Shown in pieces: positions 14,423 to 20,170 of a DNA stretch of 32,287 bases (position 1 is its first letter; each line of letters opens with the position of its first letter). This DNA comes from Armatimonadota bacterium (GTDB lineage: Bacteria; Armatimonadota; Armatimonadia; Armatimonadales; Armatimonadaceae). Under the pieces are notes generated by a model. The model was not told the DNA's origin and ran no database searches. It saw only the letters and a program-made list of their open reading frames with translations. The DNA is taken from positions 1-32,287 of the forward strand of contig JAYUUO010000186.1 in the NCBI GenBank assembly GCA_043754515.1. Direction: 5' to 3'. The translations under genes and the position numbers were made by a program.

Positions 14423-16765
14423 CTACCGACGCGGCTCGCTTCCCGTGCCCGCCGTGGTCGCGCCGCCGTTCTTGCCGCGTATCCACGTGCGGCTCGTATC
14501 TTTGGCGCGAGCGAGTATTTCGTAGCCGCCGCTCGGGAGCGTGCGGTACGACACCAGTTTCCCGCCCTCGAAGTTATCCAGCATCCGTTTCCTGTCCGCC
14601 TCGGGTAGCGTCAGCGGCGCGAGCGTGCGCGTGTCCAGCGACTCGGGCGCGCCGCTGTCCGTGGTCGCCATCAGGGAGCAGAGGGCCTGCATGGACGCCG
14701 TGGCGACCGCGATATTCTTGCCGTTGCTTATGCTCCAGGGGATCGCGAGAACGCCCTTCGCCCCTTCCACGATCGGTAGCACCGTGTTCTCCTCCACGGC
14801 GGACAGGAGGCGCGCGATACCCGACGGGCTTGGTACGGCAGCGAGTGCTTTAGTCTCCTCGGCGAGGGTCGGGTCCCCCGGTGTCTGCGCTTGGGTGACA
14901 CCTTGACCGCCCGGCAGACGGATAAGAACCCGCTCGCCCGTTTTGACGTCCGCCATCCCCCCCGAATATTCCACGTGCGTGGTGCCCGTAGGTGCCGCGA
15001 CCAGAACGACGCGCACGCCCTGCCCTAGGCTACCGTTCGCCAGTTGCAAGCGCGTGTCGCCGGTCACGTCGCACTTCACGCCCTCGCCTGTTTCCGCCGA
15101 GAACTGCTCCTTGCCACGCGGCGCGGGTTGCGCCCGTATCGCGACGCGCCCGTTCCAGAGTATGACGCGGCGGAGCGGCCCGTTGTCATACCCGAGTTCC
15201 CGCACCTCCACCGCACTGCGCCCGGCGATATAGATCGCCTCGCCGTTCGCAAGAGCGAGTGTCGCGGAACCGCCGTTCGGCGTGGCGATATACAAAGGTA
15301 GGTCGCTCGCGCTCAGTCTCTGCCCGAGTACGAGCGGCTTCGGCTTCGGCGCGTCTTCCGGCTTCGCGTCGGGCGCGGGCACCGGCTGTCGCGTTACCTT
15401 GCCGGACATTTGCACCACCGTCGCCCCCTGATACGACGGCACCACCGTCGCCCCGTGCCCGAAAACGAACGCGGCGGTGGCGGCGAGGATGCCCCACTTG
15501 ACTGTCGGTTGCCAACGTTCGCGGGAGATCTCCCGCGCGGCGTCGGCGCGTTTCTTCGCCTGTTCCGCCTTCCACTTGATCTCCAGAAGGTCCATCTCCG
15601 AAAGGCGGTACTCCTGCAAGGCGGCGCGCCCGCCGCCCGCCATGCCGCCGCCCAGCGCGAACGCGGCCATGTTCCGGCCCGCCGCTGGTCGCGCTGCTGC
15701 TCCCGCCTGACTCGCGGCCCCTTCCTGCCGCGCACGTTCCTGATCCTCCGCGTCGCGCCACCCGACACGGAGCGCGTCTTCGGCGGTGCCCGTCTGTTTT
15801 CGCCCCAACTTCTGCTCACCCAGTAACGCGGCGGTGTTCATCTCCACCCCGTCGAAGCGGTCCGCGCCGTCGGGGCTGCGTTTGTTATCCAGGTCCTCTA
15901 TCGCCCGCCCGACGCCGGAGTAGCGGAAGCGCGGCTCTTTCGCCAGCATCGCGCCCAGCACATTGCGGGCGTACGAAGGGAGGCTGACCGCCGTCTTCAG
16001 CGGATCGTCCGCGCGCGCTTTTTGCGCGATCTCCTCGGGCGTGGTGCCGGTGAATATGGGCTTGCCGGTTACCAGTTCCAGCAGAAGCGCGCCGACGGCG
16101 TAAACGTCCGAGCGGTGGTCGCCCTCGAACCCGTCTTGCTGTTCGGGGGCGGCATAGCGCGAGCCGTATTTTGGGCGGGCGTGCGCGAGGCCGAAGTTGA
16201 TCACCCGCACCTCTATGAGATCGGGTGCCTCCGGATGGTTGACTAGGAGAACATTGTAGGGTGTCAGGTCGGTGTGGGCCAGGCCCTGTTCGGCGGCGAA
16301 GTCAACCGCGTCCGCCACCTGCTTCATCACCGCGACGCACCACGCGATCGGTTGCGCGCCGCCCGACGCCATGATCTGTTGCAGGGTACGCGCCTCGAAG
16401 TACTCGGTGGCGATCCAGAACAGCCCGTTCTCCTCGCCGAACCCGATGATGTCCTGAATCACCGGGTGGCGGTCGCGTTTTTGTTGCTGTTCGAGGAGGC
16501 CGCGGAACTGCTCCTTCGCCGCGTCCCACTTCTCCGAGTCCGCCCCGTCGGGGCGCGTGAAGCCGCGGAAGACGACTTTCTCCCCGGTCTCCACGTTTTC
16601 GGCGCGGTATATTTTGCCGAGGGGCCCCTGTCCCATCTCGGCACCGACCCGGTAGCCGGCCACGACCGGGTTGGGGTCGGGCGCGTTTGGTAGGGGCGTC
16701 GCGTCGCTCGGCGCGGTTCGCGCGTCGCTGGGCGTGGTATTCTCGGTGGTATCGGGTACGGACAT
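14423..16765 (-). CDS. Hanks-type Ser/Thr kinase-like domain (probable pseudokinase) + TM + FecR-like extracytoplasmic domain
   Basis: MGQGPLGKIYRA, HTDLTPYNVLL, INFGLA, YAAPEQ, SDVYAVGALLLELVTGKPIF. TM WGILAATAAFVFG. FecR-like ATVVQMSGKV...IATPNGGSATLALANGEAIYIAGRSAVEV...LWNGRV. SD GAGGT. Confidence 0.85.
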   Translation of the reverse strand: MSVPDTTENTTPSDARTAPSDATPLPNAPDPNPVVAGYRVGAEMGQGPLGKIYRAENVETGEKVVFRGFTRPDGADSEKWDAAKEQFRGLLEQQQKRDRHPVIQDIIGFGEENGLFWIATEYFEARTLQQIMASGGAQPIAWCVAVMKQVADAVDFAAEQGLAHTDLTPYNVLLVNHPEAPDLIEVRVINFGLAHARPKYGSRYAAPEQQDGFEGDHRSDVYAVGALLLELVTGKPIFTGTTPEEIAQKARADDPLKTAVSLPSYARNVLGAMLAKEPRFRYSGVGRAIEDLDNKRSPDGADRFDGVEMNTAALLGEQKLGRKQTGTAEDALRVGWRDAEDQERARQEGAASQAGAAARPAAGRNMAAFALGGGMAGGGRAALQEYRLSEMDLLEIKWKAEQAKKRADAAREISRERWQPTVKWGILAATAAFVFGHGATVVPSYQGATVVQMSGKVTRQPVPAPDAKPEDAPKPKPLVLGQRLSASDLPLYIATPNGGSATLALANGEAIYIAGRSAVEVRELGYDNGPLRRVILWNGRVAIRAQPAPRGKEQFSAETGEGVKCDVTGDTRLQLANGSLGQGVRVVLVAAPTGTTHVEYSGGMADVKTGERVLIRLPGGQGVTQAQTPGDPTLAEETKALAAVPSPSGIARLLSAVEENTVLPIVEGAKGVLAIPWSISNGKNIAVATASMQALCSLMATTDSGAPESLDTRTLAPLTLPEADRKRMLDNFEGGKLVSYRTLPSGGYEILARAKDTSRTWIRGKNGGATTAGTGSEPRR

Positions 16766-16904: not shown

Positions 16905-18068
16905 ATGACTCACGTCTCGACACGAACCCGCGCCCGACGAAAACAAATGCCGCGCGACACTCCCATATTCCTACCGCTCCCGCCGGATCTATCCGTGCCG
17001 GACGGCACTGGCCTGCTTTTCGACGGTGCCATGTCCGTCACTCCGACAGGACCACCGCTTGTGGTCAGCAACTCGCCGGAGCAGATGGCCGGATCGGAGC
17101 CGGTTTTGGTGTTGTGCCGGGTTCGGCTCCCCGAATGGCGGGCGCGTCTCTTTTTCCACCACCAGAACATCGGTGGTCCGCTACGTATCGCGCCGTTTTT
17201 CCTGAACCACGGCACCGCGCCGCTTGAACTGTATGTCGCCCGCGCGAGCGGCGATTCGGCGGAACGGCCTGGCGGGGCGGTTGACGGCGACCCCGCCGTC
17301 GCCGGTCTGAACACGCTCCGATCCTACTTCGAGTCGCGCTCCGATGGCGGCGAGGTTGACCACTATCTGGCCACGGTCGCCCCCGGTAGCCGCGTGTTGA
17401 TCGCGGCGCGGGATGTTCCGCGCGGGCATACGGCCTCCGGCATGTTCGACTTCGCGCTCCGCCCAGTATCCGGGCGCGGCGGCGTGGGCGCGTTGGCGGT
17501 GGAGATGGGTGTCGTAGCGTGGCGCGGCACGACATTGCCGACCCGCGAGCAACTCCTGGGGGCACCCGCGAAAGCCGACGATCCGCGACAAGCGCGGACG
17601 CGCGGCGTGTACCGCTATGGCGGGCGGCGCGGGAAGATCGGCTTTGTGGTACCCGAGGATGGGTTGCCGCGCTGGCTCGACCTCGCGGGACCGGAGAGCG
17701 GGGTTTATTCGCGCCCACTACCGGGCGAGTTCCCCCGCGACATTGTCCGGGGGAACGGGCGGCTCGACACCAACCCCGGTAACTACGGCGTGGTCTACGA
17801 TCTATCGGTCACGCTCGGCAACCCGCGGGCGTGGGGGACGCGGGTGGTATGTCTGCTAAATCTGGCGGGCGGCGCGGGCGGCTCCGTGGTCGCGGTTGAC
17901 GGAGCATGTCTGCCGCCGCGTGGCGTGCTCCGAAAGGCGTTCGGCTCCTATGTCTGGCACGAGGCGCGGCTCGCGCCGGGCGGGTCGGGGGCGGTGCGGC
18001 TACGGTTCAGTCTGCCGGGCGGGGCATCGGGGGCACACCGGCTCTACTTCTGGTGTCGGCCTTTGTAG
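16905..18068 (+). CDS. Hypothetical protein, DUF3370-like motifs
   Basis: VVSNSPE, RLFFHHQN and GNYGVVYDL recall DUF3370-type proteins (recognised from memory, not verified). Confidence 0.7.
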   Translation: MTHVSTRTRARRKQMPRDTPIFLPLPPDLSVPDGTGLLFDGAMSVTPTGPPLVVSNSPEQMAGSEPVLVLCRVRLPEWRARLFFHHQNIGGPLRIAPFFLNHGTAPLELYVARASGDSAERPGGAVDGDPAVAGLNTLRSYFESRSDGGEVDHYLATVAPGSRVLIAARDVPRGHTASGMFDFALRPVSGRGGVGALAVEMGVVAWRGTTLPTREQLLGAPAKADDPRQARTRGVYRYGGRRGKIGFVVPEDGLPRWLDLAGPESGVYSRPLPGEFPRDIVRGNGRLDTNPGNYGVVYDLSVTLGNPRAWGTRVVCLLNLAGGAGGSVVAVDGACLPPRGVLRKAFGSYVWHEARLAPGGSGAVRLRFSLPGGASGAHRLYFWCRPL

Positions 18069-18100
18069 GCGTGCGCGGGAGGAGCGGCGACGGCGGCACG

Positions 18101-18144
18101 AAATTAAAAAGACGCCCCGCGCGCTACGGTACGGGCGGGGCGTC
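18101..18144 (-). terminator. Rho-independent terminator for the minus-strand micro-ORF
   Basis: 10-bp perfect stem GACGCCCCGC (18111-18120) / GCGGGGCGTC (18135-18144), followed on the minus strand by TTTTTAATTT. Confidence 0.85.
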
Positions 18145-18151
18145 ATCGGGG

Positions 18152-18208
18152 CTACTTCTTGCCCTTCTTCTTATCCTTCTTGTCTTTCTTATCTTTCTTC
18201 TTAGCCAT
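18152..18208 (-). CDS. 18-aa lysine-rich micropeptide MAKKKDKKDKKDKKKGKK
   Basis: ATG at 18208 preceded by GAAAGGAGGGTAATCATC (strong SD). TAG at 18154-18152 with the terminator stem 7 nt downstream. Too short for the ORF track. Confidence 0.75.
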   Translation of the reverse strand: MAKKKDKKDKKDKKKGKK

Positions 18209-18378
18209 GATGATTACCCTCCTTTCTGACATGCGGTGCAACGTTGTCATGATGTCAACTGTGGTTCATGTACCCTTAGGCGCGGATAATAAACCGTTAA
18301 TTTTAATTAACACCTCCGTAGCCATCCACAACACCGTGAATTACCTGGCATAAAAGGTGCTAACCCGCCTTATCACCT

Positions 18379-18406
18379 ATTGTATCGCCGAAAAAACGGC
18401 TGTCAA
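18379..18406 (-). promoter_or_regulatory. Sigma70-type promoter for the micropeptide transcript
   Basis: Minus strand TTGACA (18406-18401), 16-bp spacer, TACAAT (18384-18379). Confidence 0.7.
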
Positions 18407-18981
18407 GGACGAGACGGGACAATAATGTCCCGCCGGATGCGCGGGGGCACGCATAGCTCATTCCTACCCTTCCGCCGACACCGCCGCCAACCCGCAGTCC
18501 GAGATGCCGAACCCGCATAGACGGTGCCGTCGGGGCCGAGGGTGGGCGCGCAAATCCTTGACCCGGACGAGCGAGCGGCGAACTGCCACCGGCAGTGCCC
18601 GTTAGTCGCTCCGAGGGCGGGGAGCTTGCCGTTCCCGGAGCCGATGTACACCGTGTCGTCGTGTCCTACCGCGCAATCGGCGGTCGCCCCGTCGCTGCGG
18701 CCGATGGGCACCTCCCACACCGGCTTCCCGGTGCGCTCGGAGAAGGCATACAGGCTCCGGCGGACGGACAACACGAACGCCAGCCGCGCGTCGCGGTGCC
18801 ACGAGCCGACGACGGGCGAGGAGTAGATGGGGCCGTCCGTGGGCGCGTGCCATCGCAGACGGAGCCGGTGATGACCGGCGGCGCGGCGTCCTTTGGCGTC
18901 CCCCGCCCACAGATTCGAGTTCGCGAGGTCGCCGTGACTTTCGCGCCACAGGGGTACGTTTTCGGTGTCGGTTGGCGTACT
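18403..18981 (-). pseudogene. Truncated PQQ-binding-like beta-propeller remnant
   Basis: One open frame encodes WRESHGDLANS, LRWHAPTDGPIYSSPVVG, LYAFSERTGKPVW, VYIGSGNGKL..L....G..RWQF and PTLGPDGTVYAGS. It is closed upstream by TAA (18984-18982), has no start codon before the first repeats, and contains only about 3-4 blades. Confidence 0.6.
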
Positions 18982-19266
18982 TTATCCTTGGATCAACCTG
19001 AGTTCATGGGGCCGTCTGTGCCAGGACCGGAGCCGGAGTGAACCCCATTCACCGGATGCAGCTTCATAATACGCTCTCGCAGTCTTGTATCTGAAGTAGG
19101 GCACCATACCATGCCAGGACGAATCTATATGACTTGCTGTCTGGTGAAAAAGGTTCACTCCACGCCTCCCGAGTCGGCACTTTAGCCCGCGCTCAACCCG
19201 AACTCGCGTTATTTCAGGGCGCGTCGAAAATAGTTTCCAAAAATGGCCTGATTCCGCCGCGCCGCC

Positions 19267-19293
19267 TGTCACATAATATGTCAGAGGTACGTT
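19267..19293 (+). promoter_or_regulatory. Putative ECF-sigma promoter upstream of the TPR-peptide-ECF cassette
   Basis: TGTCACA (19267-19273), 16-bp spacer, CGTT (19290-19293). Close to the TGTCACA-N16-CGTC consensus I recall for ECF41-type sigmas. Confidence 0.55.
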
Positions 19294-19336
19294 TATAAGG
19301 GAAAGCCTCGCTCCGAGGCAGGAGACATGACAGCCA

Positions 19337-20170
19337 ATGTGGGAATGGTACAGCAAAGCAAACGCGCCCGTGCCGGTCCAGGAAAAGAAGTCCTGCGCCG
19401 CGCTCTCGTTCCGCGTCACCCGCGAAGGGAAACTGATGCCGATACCGCCCGAACAGATCGTCCCGTCCGACCTACCCGCCGGCGCCTACCCGCGTCACAT
19501 AGTCACCGACGACCTCCCGACCGGCGAGCAGACGCTTTCCGCCCGGTTCTTCGAGCGCAACCCGGCCCACCTGATCGGGCGGCGCACCGGGAGCGGGGTC
19601 TGGCCCGACGATTCGCCGGACGCCCAGGCCGTGCGCTCCTTCGAGGCGGGCCAGACCGCGCTGTACCAGGATAAGGACCCCGTGGCCGCGATCACGGCGT
19701 ACGAAGCCGCCGTGGAGCGGGACGCCGGGTATATCAAGGCGTGGGTCGCGCTGGCGATCTCGTACATCACTGACAACACGCCGGGGTCGCTCGACCGCGC
19801 GACCGAAGTCCTTTCGTTCCTCGCCGAACTCGCGCCGAGCGATTGGCTGACCGAGGAGGCGAGCGGCATCGTCCACCAGAACCGGGCGTACCTGTCCGTC
19901 CACCGGTTCCGGCAGGGCGGCGAAACCGACGCGACGCTTCTGGCCGACGCCGACGCCGACTACCGCGTCTGCGACGCGCGCACCGCGCCGGAGCGGGAGC
20001 GTCTAGAATACCTATGCCCGTGGGCGTACGTGAAACTGTGTCTGCGCGAAACGGAGTCCGCCCGCGCCTTGTGGGAGCGCGCTGCCGCCCGCGCGGACGT
20101 CCTGAACGCTTCCGGCATTCTCGCCGAGTACGCCGCGAAATACGCGCCTTTACGAACTCTAATGAACTAA
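19337..20170 (+). CDS. Cytoplasmic TPR-repeat protein with unknown ~90-aa N-terminal domain
   Basis: TPR-like helical pairs: AVRSFEAGQTALY..KDPVAAITAYEAAVERDAGYIKAWVALAISY, GIVHQNRAYL, YLCPWAYVKLCLRETESARALWERA. No signal peptide or TM. AGGAG upstream. Confidence 0.8.
   Translation: MWEWYSKANAPVPVQEKKSCAALSFRVTREGKLMPIPPEQIVPSDLPAGAYPRHIVTDDLPTGEQTLSARFFERNPAHLIGRRTGSGVWPDDSPDAQAVRSFEAGQTALYQDKDPVAAITAYEAAVERDAGYIKAWVALAISYITDNTPGSLDRATEVLSFLAELAPSDWLTEEASGIVHQNRAYLSVHRFRQGGETDATLLADADADYRVCDARTAPERERLEYLCPWAYVKLCLRETESARALWERAAARADVLNASGILAEYAAKYAPLRTLMN

Follow-up and report, generated by a model that had tools for sequence, protein, structure and literature searches.

A lysine-rich micropeptide gene and its transcript

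The stretch of DNA analysed here (the window, 32,287 nucleotides of an Armatimonadota contig) carries on its minus strand a compact gene for a micropeptide, MAKKKDKKDKKDKKKGKK, whose features are collected in Table 1. Promoter, Shine-Dalgarno (SD) site, the 18-codon ORF and the terminator all lie where an earlier note on this DNA had placed them. The two promoter hexamers agree with 11 of 12 consensus positions, promoter-like sites between 16500 and 20000 number three as against 0.7 in shuffles, and transcription is predicted to start at about 18372. With 12 lysines and 3 aspartates, the peptide has a net charge of +9, and both AAG/AAA and GAT/GAC are in use. It has the highest lysine fraction among the 171,813 start-to-stop frames of 10-60 amino acids in the genome and is the only such frame that combines at least 40% lysine with an SD; ORFs with at least 50% lysine number two in the real genome and none in each of five block-shuffled genomes.

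Table 1. Features of the micropeptide unit and its neighbours in the window, with the positions of the kdp-leader motif.
Feature	Position	Strand	Basis or remark
-35 hexamer TTGACA, sigma70-type	18401..18406	-	sequence scan
-10 hexamer TACAAT, 16-nt spacer to -35	18379..18384	-	sequence scan
Structured 5′ leader, ~164 nt, promoter to SD	18209..18372	-	folding, z -2.7
Shine-Dalgarno AAAGGAGG	18218..18225	-	9 nt before ATG at 18208
Micropeptide ORF MAKKKDKKDKKDKKKGKK, 18 aa, stop TAG	18152..18208	-	start-to-stop frame and SD
Intrinsic terminator: 10-bp GC stem, internally paired loop, U tract	18101..18144	-	fold
Convergent 387-aa ORF, without Pfam match	16905..18068	+	downstream neighbour
PQQ-type beta-propeller gene fragment, looks frameshifted	18403..18900	-	upstream neighbour
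kdp-leader motif, this genome	L167:3878-3940	-	G000:C242
kdp-leader motif, further copies	L040:1936-1997; L034:2338-2396; also L283-L301, L304-L308		

The terminator stem pairs 18144-18135 with 18120-18111 and is followed by TTTTTAATTT to 18101; a simple terminator scanner with a loop limit of 8 nt missed it because its loop is longer, and it was the fold that showed it. The downstream neighbour is convergent, so no downstream gene is co-transcribed and the window holds no target for attenuation. On the upstream side, the stop codon of the beta-propeller fragment overlaps the -35 box of the micropeptide promoter. Elsewhere in the window (14423-16765, minus strand), a Ser/Thr kinase is fused to a FecR-like domain.

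The leader has a GC content of 45%, compared with 62% for the genome, and 2 of 300 shuffles gave a fold as extreme as its own. It has no counterpart in 60 relatives, in which blastn matched only the SD-ORF-terminator part, and a scan of 17000-19500 with the Rfam 15 covariance models returned a single hit, with an E-value of 1.2 and outside the unit. The SD AAAGGAGG is predicted to be about two-thirds unpaired across 4-50 °C, and this predicted accessibility barely shifts over the range, which speaks against thermometer-like masking. The leader also contains a perfect 16-nt AT palindrome (18297-18312) and an inverted repeat (18227-18257), which are possible operator sites.

A sequence search of sequencing runs with 17700-18900 identified four metatranscriptome runs, all from one sample of one study. 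Across 17500-19100, the RNA-library contigs cover solely 18133-18365, 18161-18358, 18164-18358 and 18167-18354, one per run, and in each run leader and ORF share one contig. These contigs are 95-99% alike to the window and derive from a near-identical relative. Their span is that predicted from start to terminator, with ends at 18354-18365 compared with the predicted start; they carry no strand, start or level information, may include DNA and cannot rank expression, so that they lend no support to the high expression supposed in the earlier note, and silence of the flanks, on which no RNA contigs were found within 17500-19100, does not follow. One of the two listed differences abolishes the in-frame ATG at 18250, and a longer ORF from this upstream ATG, which has no SD, was rejected; the other converts a G-U to a G-C pair in a leader hairpin. 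We conclude, with moderate support, that the micropeptide gene is transcribed in this one sample as the discrete unit that had been proposed for it.

A micropeptide family within the phylum

Blastn recovered the SD-ORF part from each of the three congeners and from both of the order's families. When 401 genomes of the phylum were searched with a codon pattern for KKDKK...KK-stop, 21 of them matched, and the reversed pattern matched one. All 22 matches have a length divisible by three, a property that 6 of the 16 permitted gaps would preserve, and 18 of the 20 loci fetched are short ORFs with an SD and a start, neither of which the pattern demands. The matches at L037 and L038 proved to be C-terminal ends of long proteins and were set aside. 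A relaxed, SD-anchored pattern gave extra, untranslated matches in the genomes of the order and no new confirmed copies.

In total, the phylum set holds 25 copies of 13-23 amino acids, at most one per genome. Each of them has an SD-like site, frame, start and stop are kept across the set, changes in length preserve the frame, and every copy has a hairpin 3′ of the ORF; 23 begin with ATG, one with GTG and one with ATA. The 427 residues after the first are made up of 292 Lys, 69 Asp, 31 Gly, 17 Ala, 14 Ser, 2 Thr and 2 Asn, so that Arg, Glu, Gln and hydrophobic residues are wholly missing from them; seven residues per copy are set by the pattern and a 50% lysine filter was applied, neither of which excludes Arg or Glu. 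These two residues account for 8.2% (Arg) and 5.3% (Glu) of the long ORFs of this genome, and each is one transition away from lysine codons. Codons are mixed in 22 copies (AAG 153/AAA 106, GAC 53/GAT 10), extending to the family what had been noticed for the window, where the amino acid pattern is kept while the codons vary. The copies show a conserved coding ORF under selection that favours lysine and disfavours Arg, Glu and any hydrophobic residue, which bears out the protein-level selection proposed from the window gene. Beyond KKDKK there is no invariant motif and no fixed length, and the net charge is +7 to +12; variable length and free residue order argue for bulk charge rather than a fitted surface.

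An antisense hydrophobic gene, in which the opposite strand would encode a Leu/Phe/Val run, was considered and rejected. Such a gene would use CTT and TTT and never CTG or CTC, which provide 68% of the Leu codons genome-wide, and a start with an SD is present in only 1 of the 25 copies; this codon use and the missing starts identify the lysine strand as the gene.

As had been suspected, the gene escapes standard annotation: four homologues of 21-23 amino acids are absent from a collection of 15 billion predicted proteins. The same four gave no Pfam or NCBIfam family at E-values up to 10, a negative that the HMMER filters make weak for low-complexity peptides, and one homologue searched against the PDB had no match. 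A further suggestion, that the peptide is a tiny ribosome-associated protein, did not hold up for the COX24/mS38 and Thx types, as the COX24_C and Thx profiles found no match at the window locus at E-values up to 1.

Several minor features of the family can be added. The stop codon is TAG in 22 of the 25 copies, mostly as TAG-CC, compared with 41% TAG genome-wide, with kin among the copies that are not independent; outside the phylum set it is TAG in 15 of 24. Two kdp-linked loci bear signs of ongoing loss: ATA replaces ATG at L041 (G057), and L187 (G414) retains only an SD and a three-codon remnant.

Association with potassium-uptake genes

Sixteen of the 25 copies adjoin K+-uptake genes, 14 of them following kdpC and two preceding kimA clusters. 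The window gene does stand alone, as the earlier note had described it, and this arrangement is not the norm of the family; all three congeners carry the peptide in a K+-uptake cluster. The ORF was directly 3′ of kdpC at 12 of the first 18 loci. Within the order, KdpC is present in 47 of 71 genomes, and a survey of 48 kdpC loci, 46 of them with sufficient downstream DNA, found the peptide at 13 of the 46, 31-88 nt past the kdpC stop; one of the untestable loci has the decayed copy at L187. The short gap would leave scant space for a promoter of the peptide's own. Family f8 has the peptide in 7 of 42 genomes and at 1 of 29 testable kdpC loci, and the copy in G094 lies 172 nt after kdpC.

At the kdp loci, kdpD, a kinase, kimA or a second kdpA follows the peptide on the same strand. 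Of the two remaining linked copies, one (G001) immediately precedes a kinase-kimA-regulator-kdpD cluster located at a contig end, and the other (G387) immediately precedes kimA. The KimA-like permease was recognised from a homologue in G003 that matches PDB 6S3K at an E-value of 2e-113, and the protein encoded in G387 shares 67% identity with this homologue. Nine of the 25 copies, including that of the window, have no adjacent K+ gene, one of the nine being at a contig start.

Since two genera supply 13 of the 16 linked copies, these amount to some three to four independent linkages. A quick tree of KdpC, in which G050 was scored as lacking the peptide though untestable, separates the families with a support of 100, has loci with the peptide in either half of the split and forces at least four changes. 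It lends no support to a single recent transfer of a kdp-peptide cassette, and peptide-bearing KdpC on both sides indicates that the K+ link is either old or repeated.

Regulatory sequences at these loci differ. The kdp promoters of family f2 contain CTTTACA/CTTTATA direct repeats, which we take to be akin to the KdpE box, and at several f2 loci a separate promoter of the KdpE type lies beyond the peptide terminator. The leaders of stand-alone copies share nothing with kdp upstream regions, and the window promoter contains no recognisable K+ element. This genome (92.7% complete) has kdpF-kdpF-kdpA at L167:1624-3800 (G000:C242) and two kimA-like genes; kdpC, a close kdpB and kdpD were not found in it. 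The K+ cluster of the congeners looks dispersed here, with the peptide gene kept on a promoter of its own. The link to K+ uptake is strong but partial.

The kdpA of this genome has neither kdpB nor kdpC behind it, and its product may function by itself or together with a different partner. In several family-f2 genomes, a second kdpA likewise stands on its own, under a direct-repeat promoter that belongs to it.

Look-alikes outside the phylum

Lineage specificity, which the earlier note had thought possible, is not supported for the peptide type: look-alikes occur in one MAG of the Chloroflexota and on numerous metagenome contigs of high GC content. The strict pattern matched 1 of 201 Chloroflexota genomes, and this match is a longer Lys/Asp/Glu run. 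A metagenome scan returned at least 118 stretches, most of them chance matches or parts of long proteins; among the matches listed, 23 short SD-led lysine ORFs were picked by eye, with four duplicates and four AT-rich phage-like ones excluded. Across their 379 residues, these 23 and the MAG copy are likewise free of Arg and Glu, and kdp genes lie beside one of the 23 (L084), again among the matches listed.

At 8 of 17 examined high-GC metagenome loci from the matches listed (L062, L063, L071, L100, L104, L121, L136 and L141), the peptide is divergent from an HTH-like gene of 82-98 amino acids across two to four GTCAAC-N5-GTTGAC palindromes, which lie 30-130 nt upstream. This palindrome is identical to the operator of the ClpC2 autorepressor module of mycobacteria and other actinobacteria, as described in the excerpted text of one report (PMC10030653), where it controls an HTH-Clp_N protein; in the look-alike loci an HTH-like gene without Clp_N faces the lysine peptide instead. 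One of the HTH partners is labelled as coming from a Pseudonocardiales MAG. A weak search found no Clp_N fusion of the partner and no plasmid or phage hits, and the operator is absent from the window. The look-alikes may be homologous or convergent, their low complexity preventing proof of homology, and they count against a purely K+-specific role.

The AT-rich phage-like contigs (L073, L083, L106 and L158) carry SD-led Lys/Asn peptides of 21-24 amino acids. One of them adjoins a ribonucleotide reductase small chain gene, and three of the peptides end in Arg.

A leader motif of kdp operons

In families f1 and f8, kdpF is preceded by a conserved RNA element made up of GGUUGCC, a variable hairpin and GGAGGCC, the last overlapping the 5′ arm of a terminator. 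An alignment was made of 20 copies, taken from 19 of the 23 loci: 92% of its cells are paired, double changes occur at 6 of the 11 pairs, none of 500 shuffles reaches the observed covariation and slid controls pair at 17-58%, the structure having been drawn from the same sequences as were tested. The model also matched before kdpA in G001, G008 and G014 and before a kimA-like gene in G008. G387 lies outside the training set, and its sole match heads the operon ORF-peptide-kimA; G241 gave no match. A second copy lies between kdpA and kdpB in G002. We considered the window leader as a worn copy of this motif and rejected the idea, as it is absent among the 14 hits at E-values up to 5. The motif has no Rfam match, and literature on c-di-AMP riboswitches and KdpDE, judged by titles and the opening lines of abstracts, contained nothing on it. 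The motif has the look of a K+-regulon riboswitch, or of a site where an antiterminator binds, that has not been described before.

Ahead of the element, families f1 and f8 share a conserved small gene (L167, L040, L034 and L290-L302), which may resemble DUF2294/MpsC. A group I intron match above the gathering score lies at L040:15480-15687 (G002).

A possible stand-in for potassium, and its alternatives

We tentatively propose, at somewhat short of an even chance, that the peptide, with a net charge of +7 to +11, is a soluble, unstructured poly-lysine counter-ion, made when K+ is short and serving to neutralise ribosomes and nucleic acids. Low K+ would switch on the kdp and kimA operons, through KdpE-type boxes or a terminator-coupled leader RNA, and the strong SD would yield many copies of the peptide. 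Lysine ammonium groups could then take over a share of the charge neutralisation that K+ provides for rRNA, tRNA, DNA and other polyanions, an action that may be likened to that of polyamines and basic amino acids, and the interspersed Asp, Gly and Ser would keep the peptide a loose counter-ion, not a condensing agent. Lysine carries less nitrogen per charge than arginine and binds RNA more loosely. This genome, with no kdpB, kdpC or kdpD found, would drive the kept gene from a near-consensus promoter, possibly constitutively. Induction, abundance and counter-ion action are each steps that we infer.

There is precedent for such substitution. In Bacillus subtilis, as set out in excerpts of one study, positively charged amino acids, lysine among them, substitute in part for K+ as a charge buffer for nucleic acids, while K+ remains essential for the ribosome despite this substitution (PMC5573677). 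The model of organic cations, basic amino acids or polyamines, buffering charge at low K+ is shared with our proposal, with the difference that the B. subtilis substitutes are metabolites and the micropeptide is gene-encoded. A lysine side chain also takes the place of K+ in pyruvate kinases (PMC5501398) and in membrane pyrophosphatases (PMC10897367), according to passages of the respective papers. No ribosomally made peptide with a K+-substitute role was found in the literature searched.

Several points weigh against the counter-ion proposal. By simple reasoning, an 18-mer would need a high concentration relative to a K+ pool of hundreds of mM. Most kdpC loci are without the peptide (it is carried by 13 of 46 in the order and 1 of 29 in family f8), one locus has a decayed copy, 9 of 25 copies have no K+ neighbour, and the linked copies amount to some three to four independent cases. 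In addition, the window leader is unlike the kdp-leader model and, among the matches listed, 1 of 23 look-alikes is kdp-adjacent and 8 of 17 examined lie under ClpC2-type operators.

A fuller version of the proposal would be that a dedicated K+-substitute peptide is co-induced with Kdp and KimA, that the same type exists unannotated in several phyla under ClpC2-type wiring, and that its host operons in two families are under an undescribed RNA switch; all of this together we regard as possible rather than probable. Literature searches on peptide strings, kdp with lysine-rich proteins, ORFs past kdpC, actinobacterial lysine-rich sORFs, and K+ starvation with polycations returned no description, and supplementary sORF catalogues or subscription papers could list function-less entries. 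As a system, a gene for a lysine-only peptide lying within operons for K+ uptake appears to be new, its mechanism being a proposal. If the proposal is true, the bacterial response to K+ starvation would have a third arm besides uptake and metabolite substitution, in which the missing cation is supplied as a gene product, and nucleic-acid charge buffering under K+ scarcity would become a one-gene question. Even on a weaker reading, this is a new and strongly selected micropeptide family that gene callers, profile searches and also tryptic proteomics fail to see, and kdp operons, some of the best-studied operons for transport, gain a new component.

Alternatively, the peptide may be a general stress-protective or nucleic-acid-, ribosome- or polyphosphate-binding basic peptide that has been recruited to various stress regulons, of which K+ shortage is one. 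Binding is plausible on charge alone, at +7 to +12 in all copies, and the 9 of 25 copies that lie apart from K+ genes agree with such recruitment, as do the ClpC2-type operators at 8 of 17 metagenome loci among the matches listed, which would point to proteostasis stress. The kinship of these actinobacterial-type peptides to the family cannot be proved with low-complexity sequences, however, and repeated placement in kdp and kimA operons is left unexplained. The small basic ribosomal proteins COX24/mS38 (PF08213) and bTHX (PF17070) are also very short, strongly basic, preceded by a strong SD and often unannotated; bS22, bL37 and eL41 are further small basic ribosomal proteins. The micropeptide differs from these in its lack of Arg, its patchy distribution (21 of 401 genomes) and its position away from ribosomal genes in the annotated loci, to which the absence of a COX24_C or Thx match at the window locus can be added. 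We know of no small RNA-binding basic protein that is wholly without Arg, and by that comparison the peptide is atypical. Closer in setting are FbpA/B/C of B. subtilis, small basic peptides in an ion-limitation regulon (iron, Fur); according to excerpts of one paper, they are 29-54 amino acids long and are predicted to be sRNA-linked RNA chaperones (PMC10730256), whereas no partner sRNA was seen for the micropeptide. On balance, we consider a general basic peptide rather unlikely.

It is less probable still that the peptide is a specific cytoplasmic partner that tunes the activity of KdpB, a split KdpD/kinase or KimA, as a soluble counterpart of KdpF. Its position between kdpC and kdpD, a kinase, kimA or a second kdpA would suit such a partner, and small proteins are known to regulate P-type ATPases and KdpD; KdpF itself is likewise a tiny ORF of kdp operons missed by annotation (both from partial text of PMC10730256). 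KdpF is, in contrast, a hydrophobic membrane helix encoded upstream of kdpA, and the micropeptide has no hydrophobic transmembrane helix, is wholly hydrophilic, lies past kdpC, is absent from most kdpC loci and also occurs alone. Peptide-bearing kdp loci already hold two kdpF-like ORFs upstream of kdpA. Moreover, the gene is kept and transcribed in this genome, where kdpC and a close kdpB or kdpD were not found (at 92.7% completeness), and a length of 13-23 residues with free residue order is unlike a docking motif.

A cis-acting role is improbable. The ORF would here serve as a leader in which ribosome speed on lysine codons, sensitive to K+ or Lys-tRNA, sets read-through of the hairpin; the hairpin behind every copy, the TAG stop in 22 of 25 and the same-strand kdpD, kinase, kimA or kdpA at kdp loci would fit, and the leader peptides of amino-acid attenuators are likewise short ORFs rich in one residue and followed by a hairpin. 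Against it, the gene that follows the window copy is convergent and offers no target, as are the neighbours in G015 and G241 and those of several copies from metagenomes. No co-oriented gene lies behind the window terminator, no lysine-pathway genes follow the copies examined, and several f2 loci have a KdpE-type promoter of their own past the terminator.

A storage role for lysine or nitrogen, or a role as a sink of lysine modification, would fit lysine as the sole basic residue and is very improbable, as there are no lysine-metabolism neighbours among the annotated loci and the kdp linkage would be unexplained. The least credible explanation, and one largely refuted, is that no peptide is made and the locus is a purine-rich repeat, a non-coding RNA or an opposite-strand hydrophobic gene: the structured leader, the antisense Leu/Phe/Val run and the one ATA start (G057) could be read in this way, against which stand a leader that is neither conserved nor matched in Rfam, an antisense frame without CTG or CTC and with a start and SD in 1 of 25 copies, and the 22 of 22 pattern matches divisible by three and the SD and start at 18 of the 20 loci fetched.
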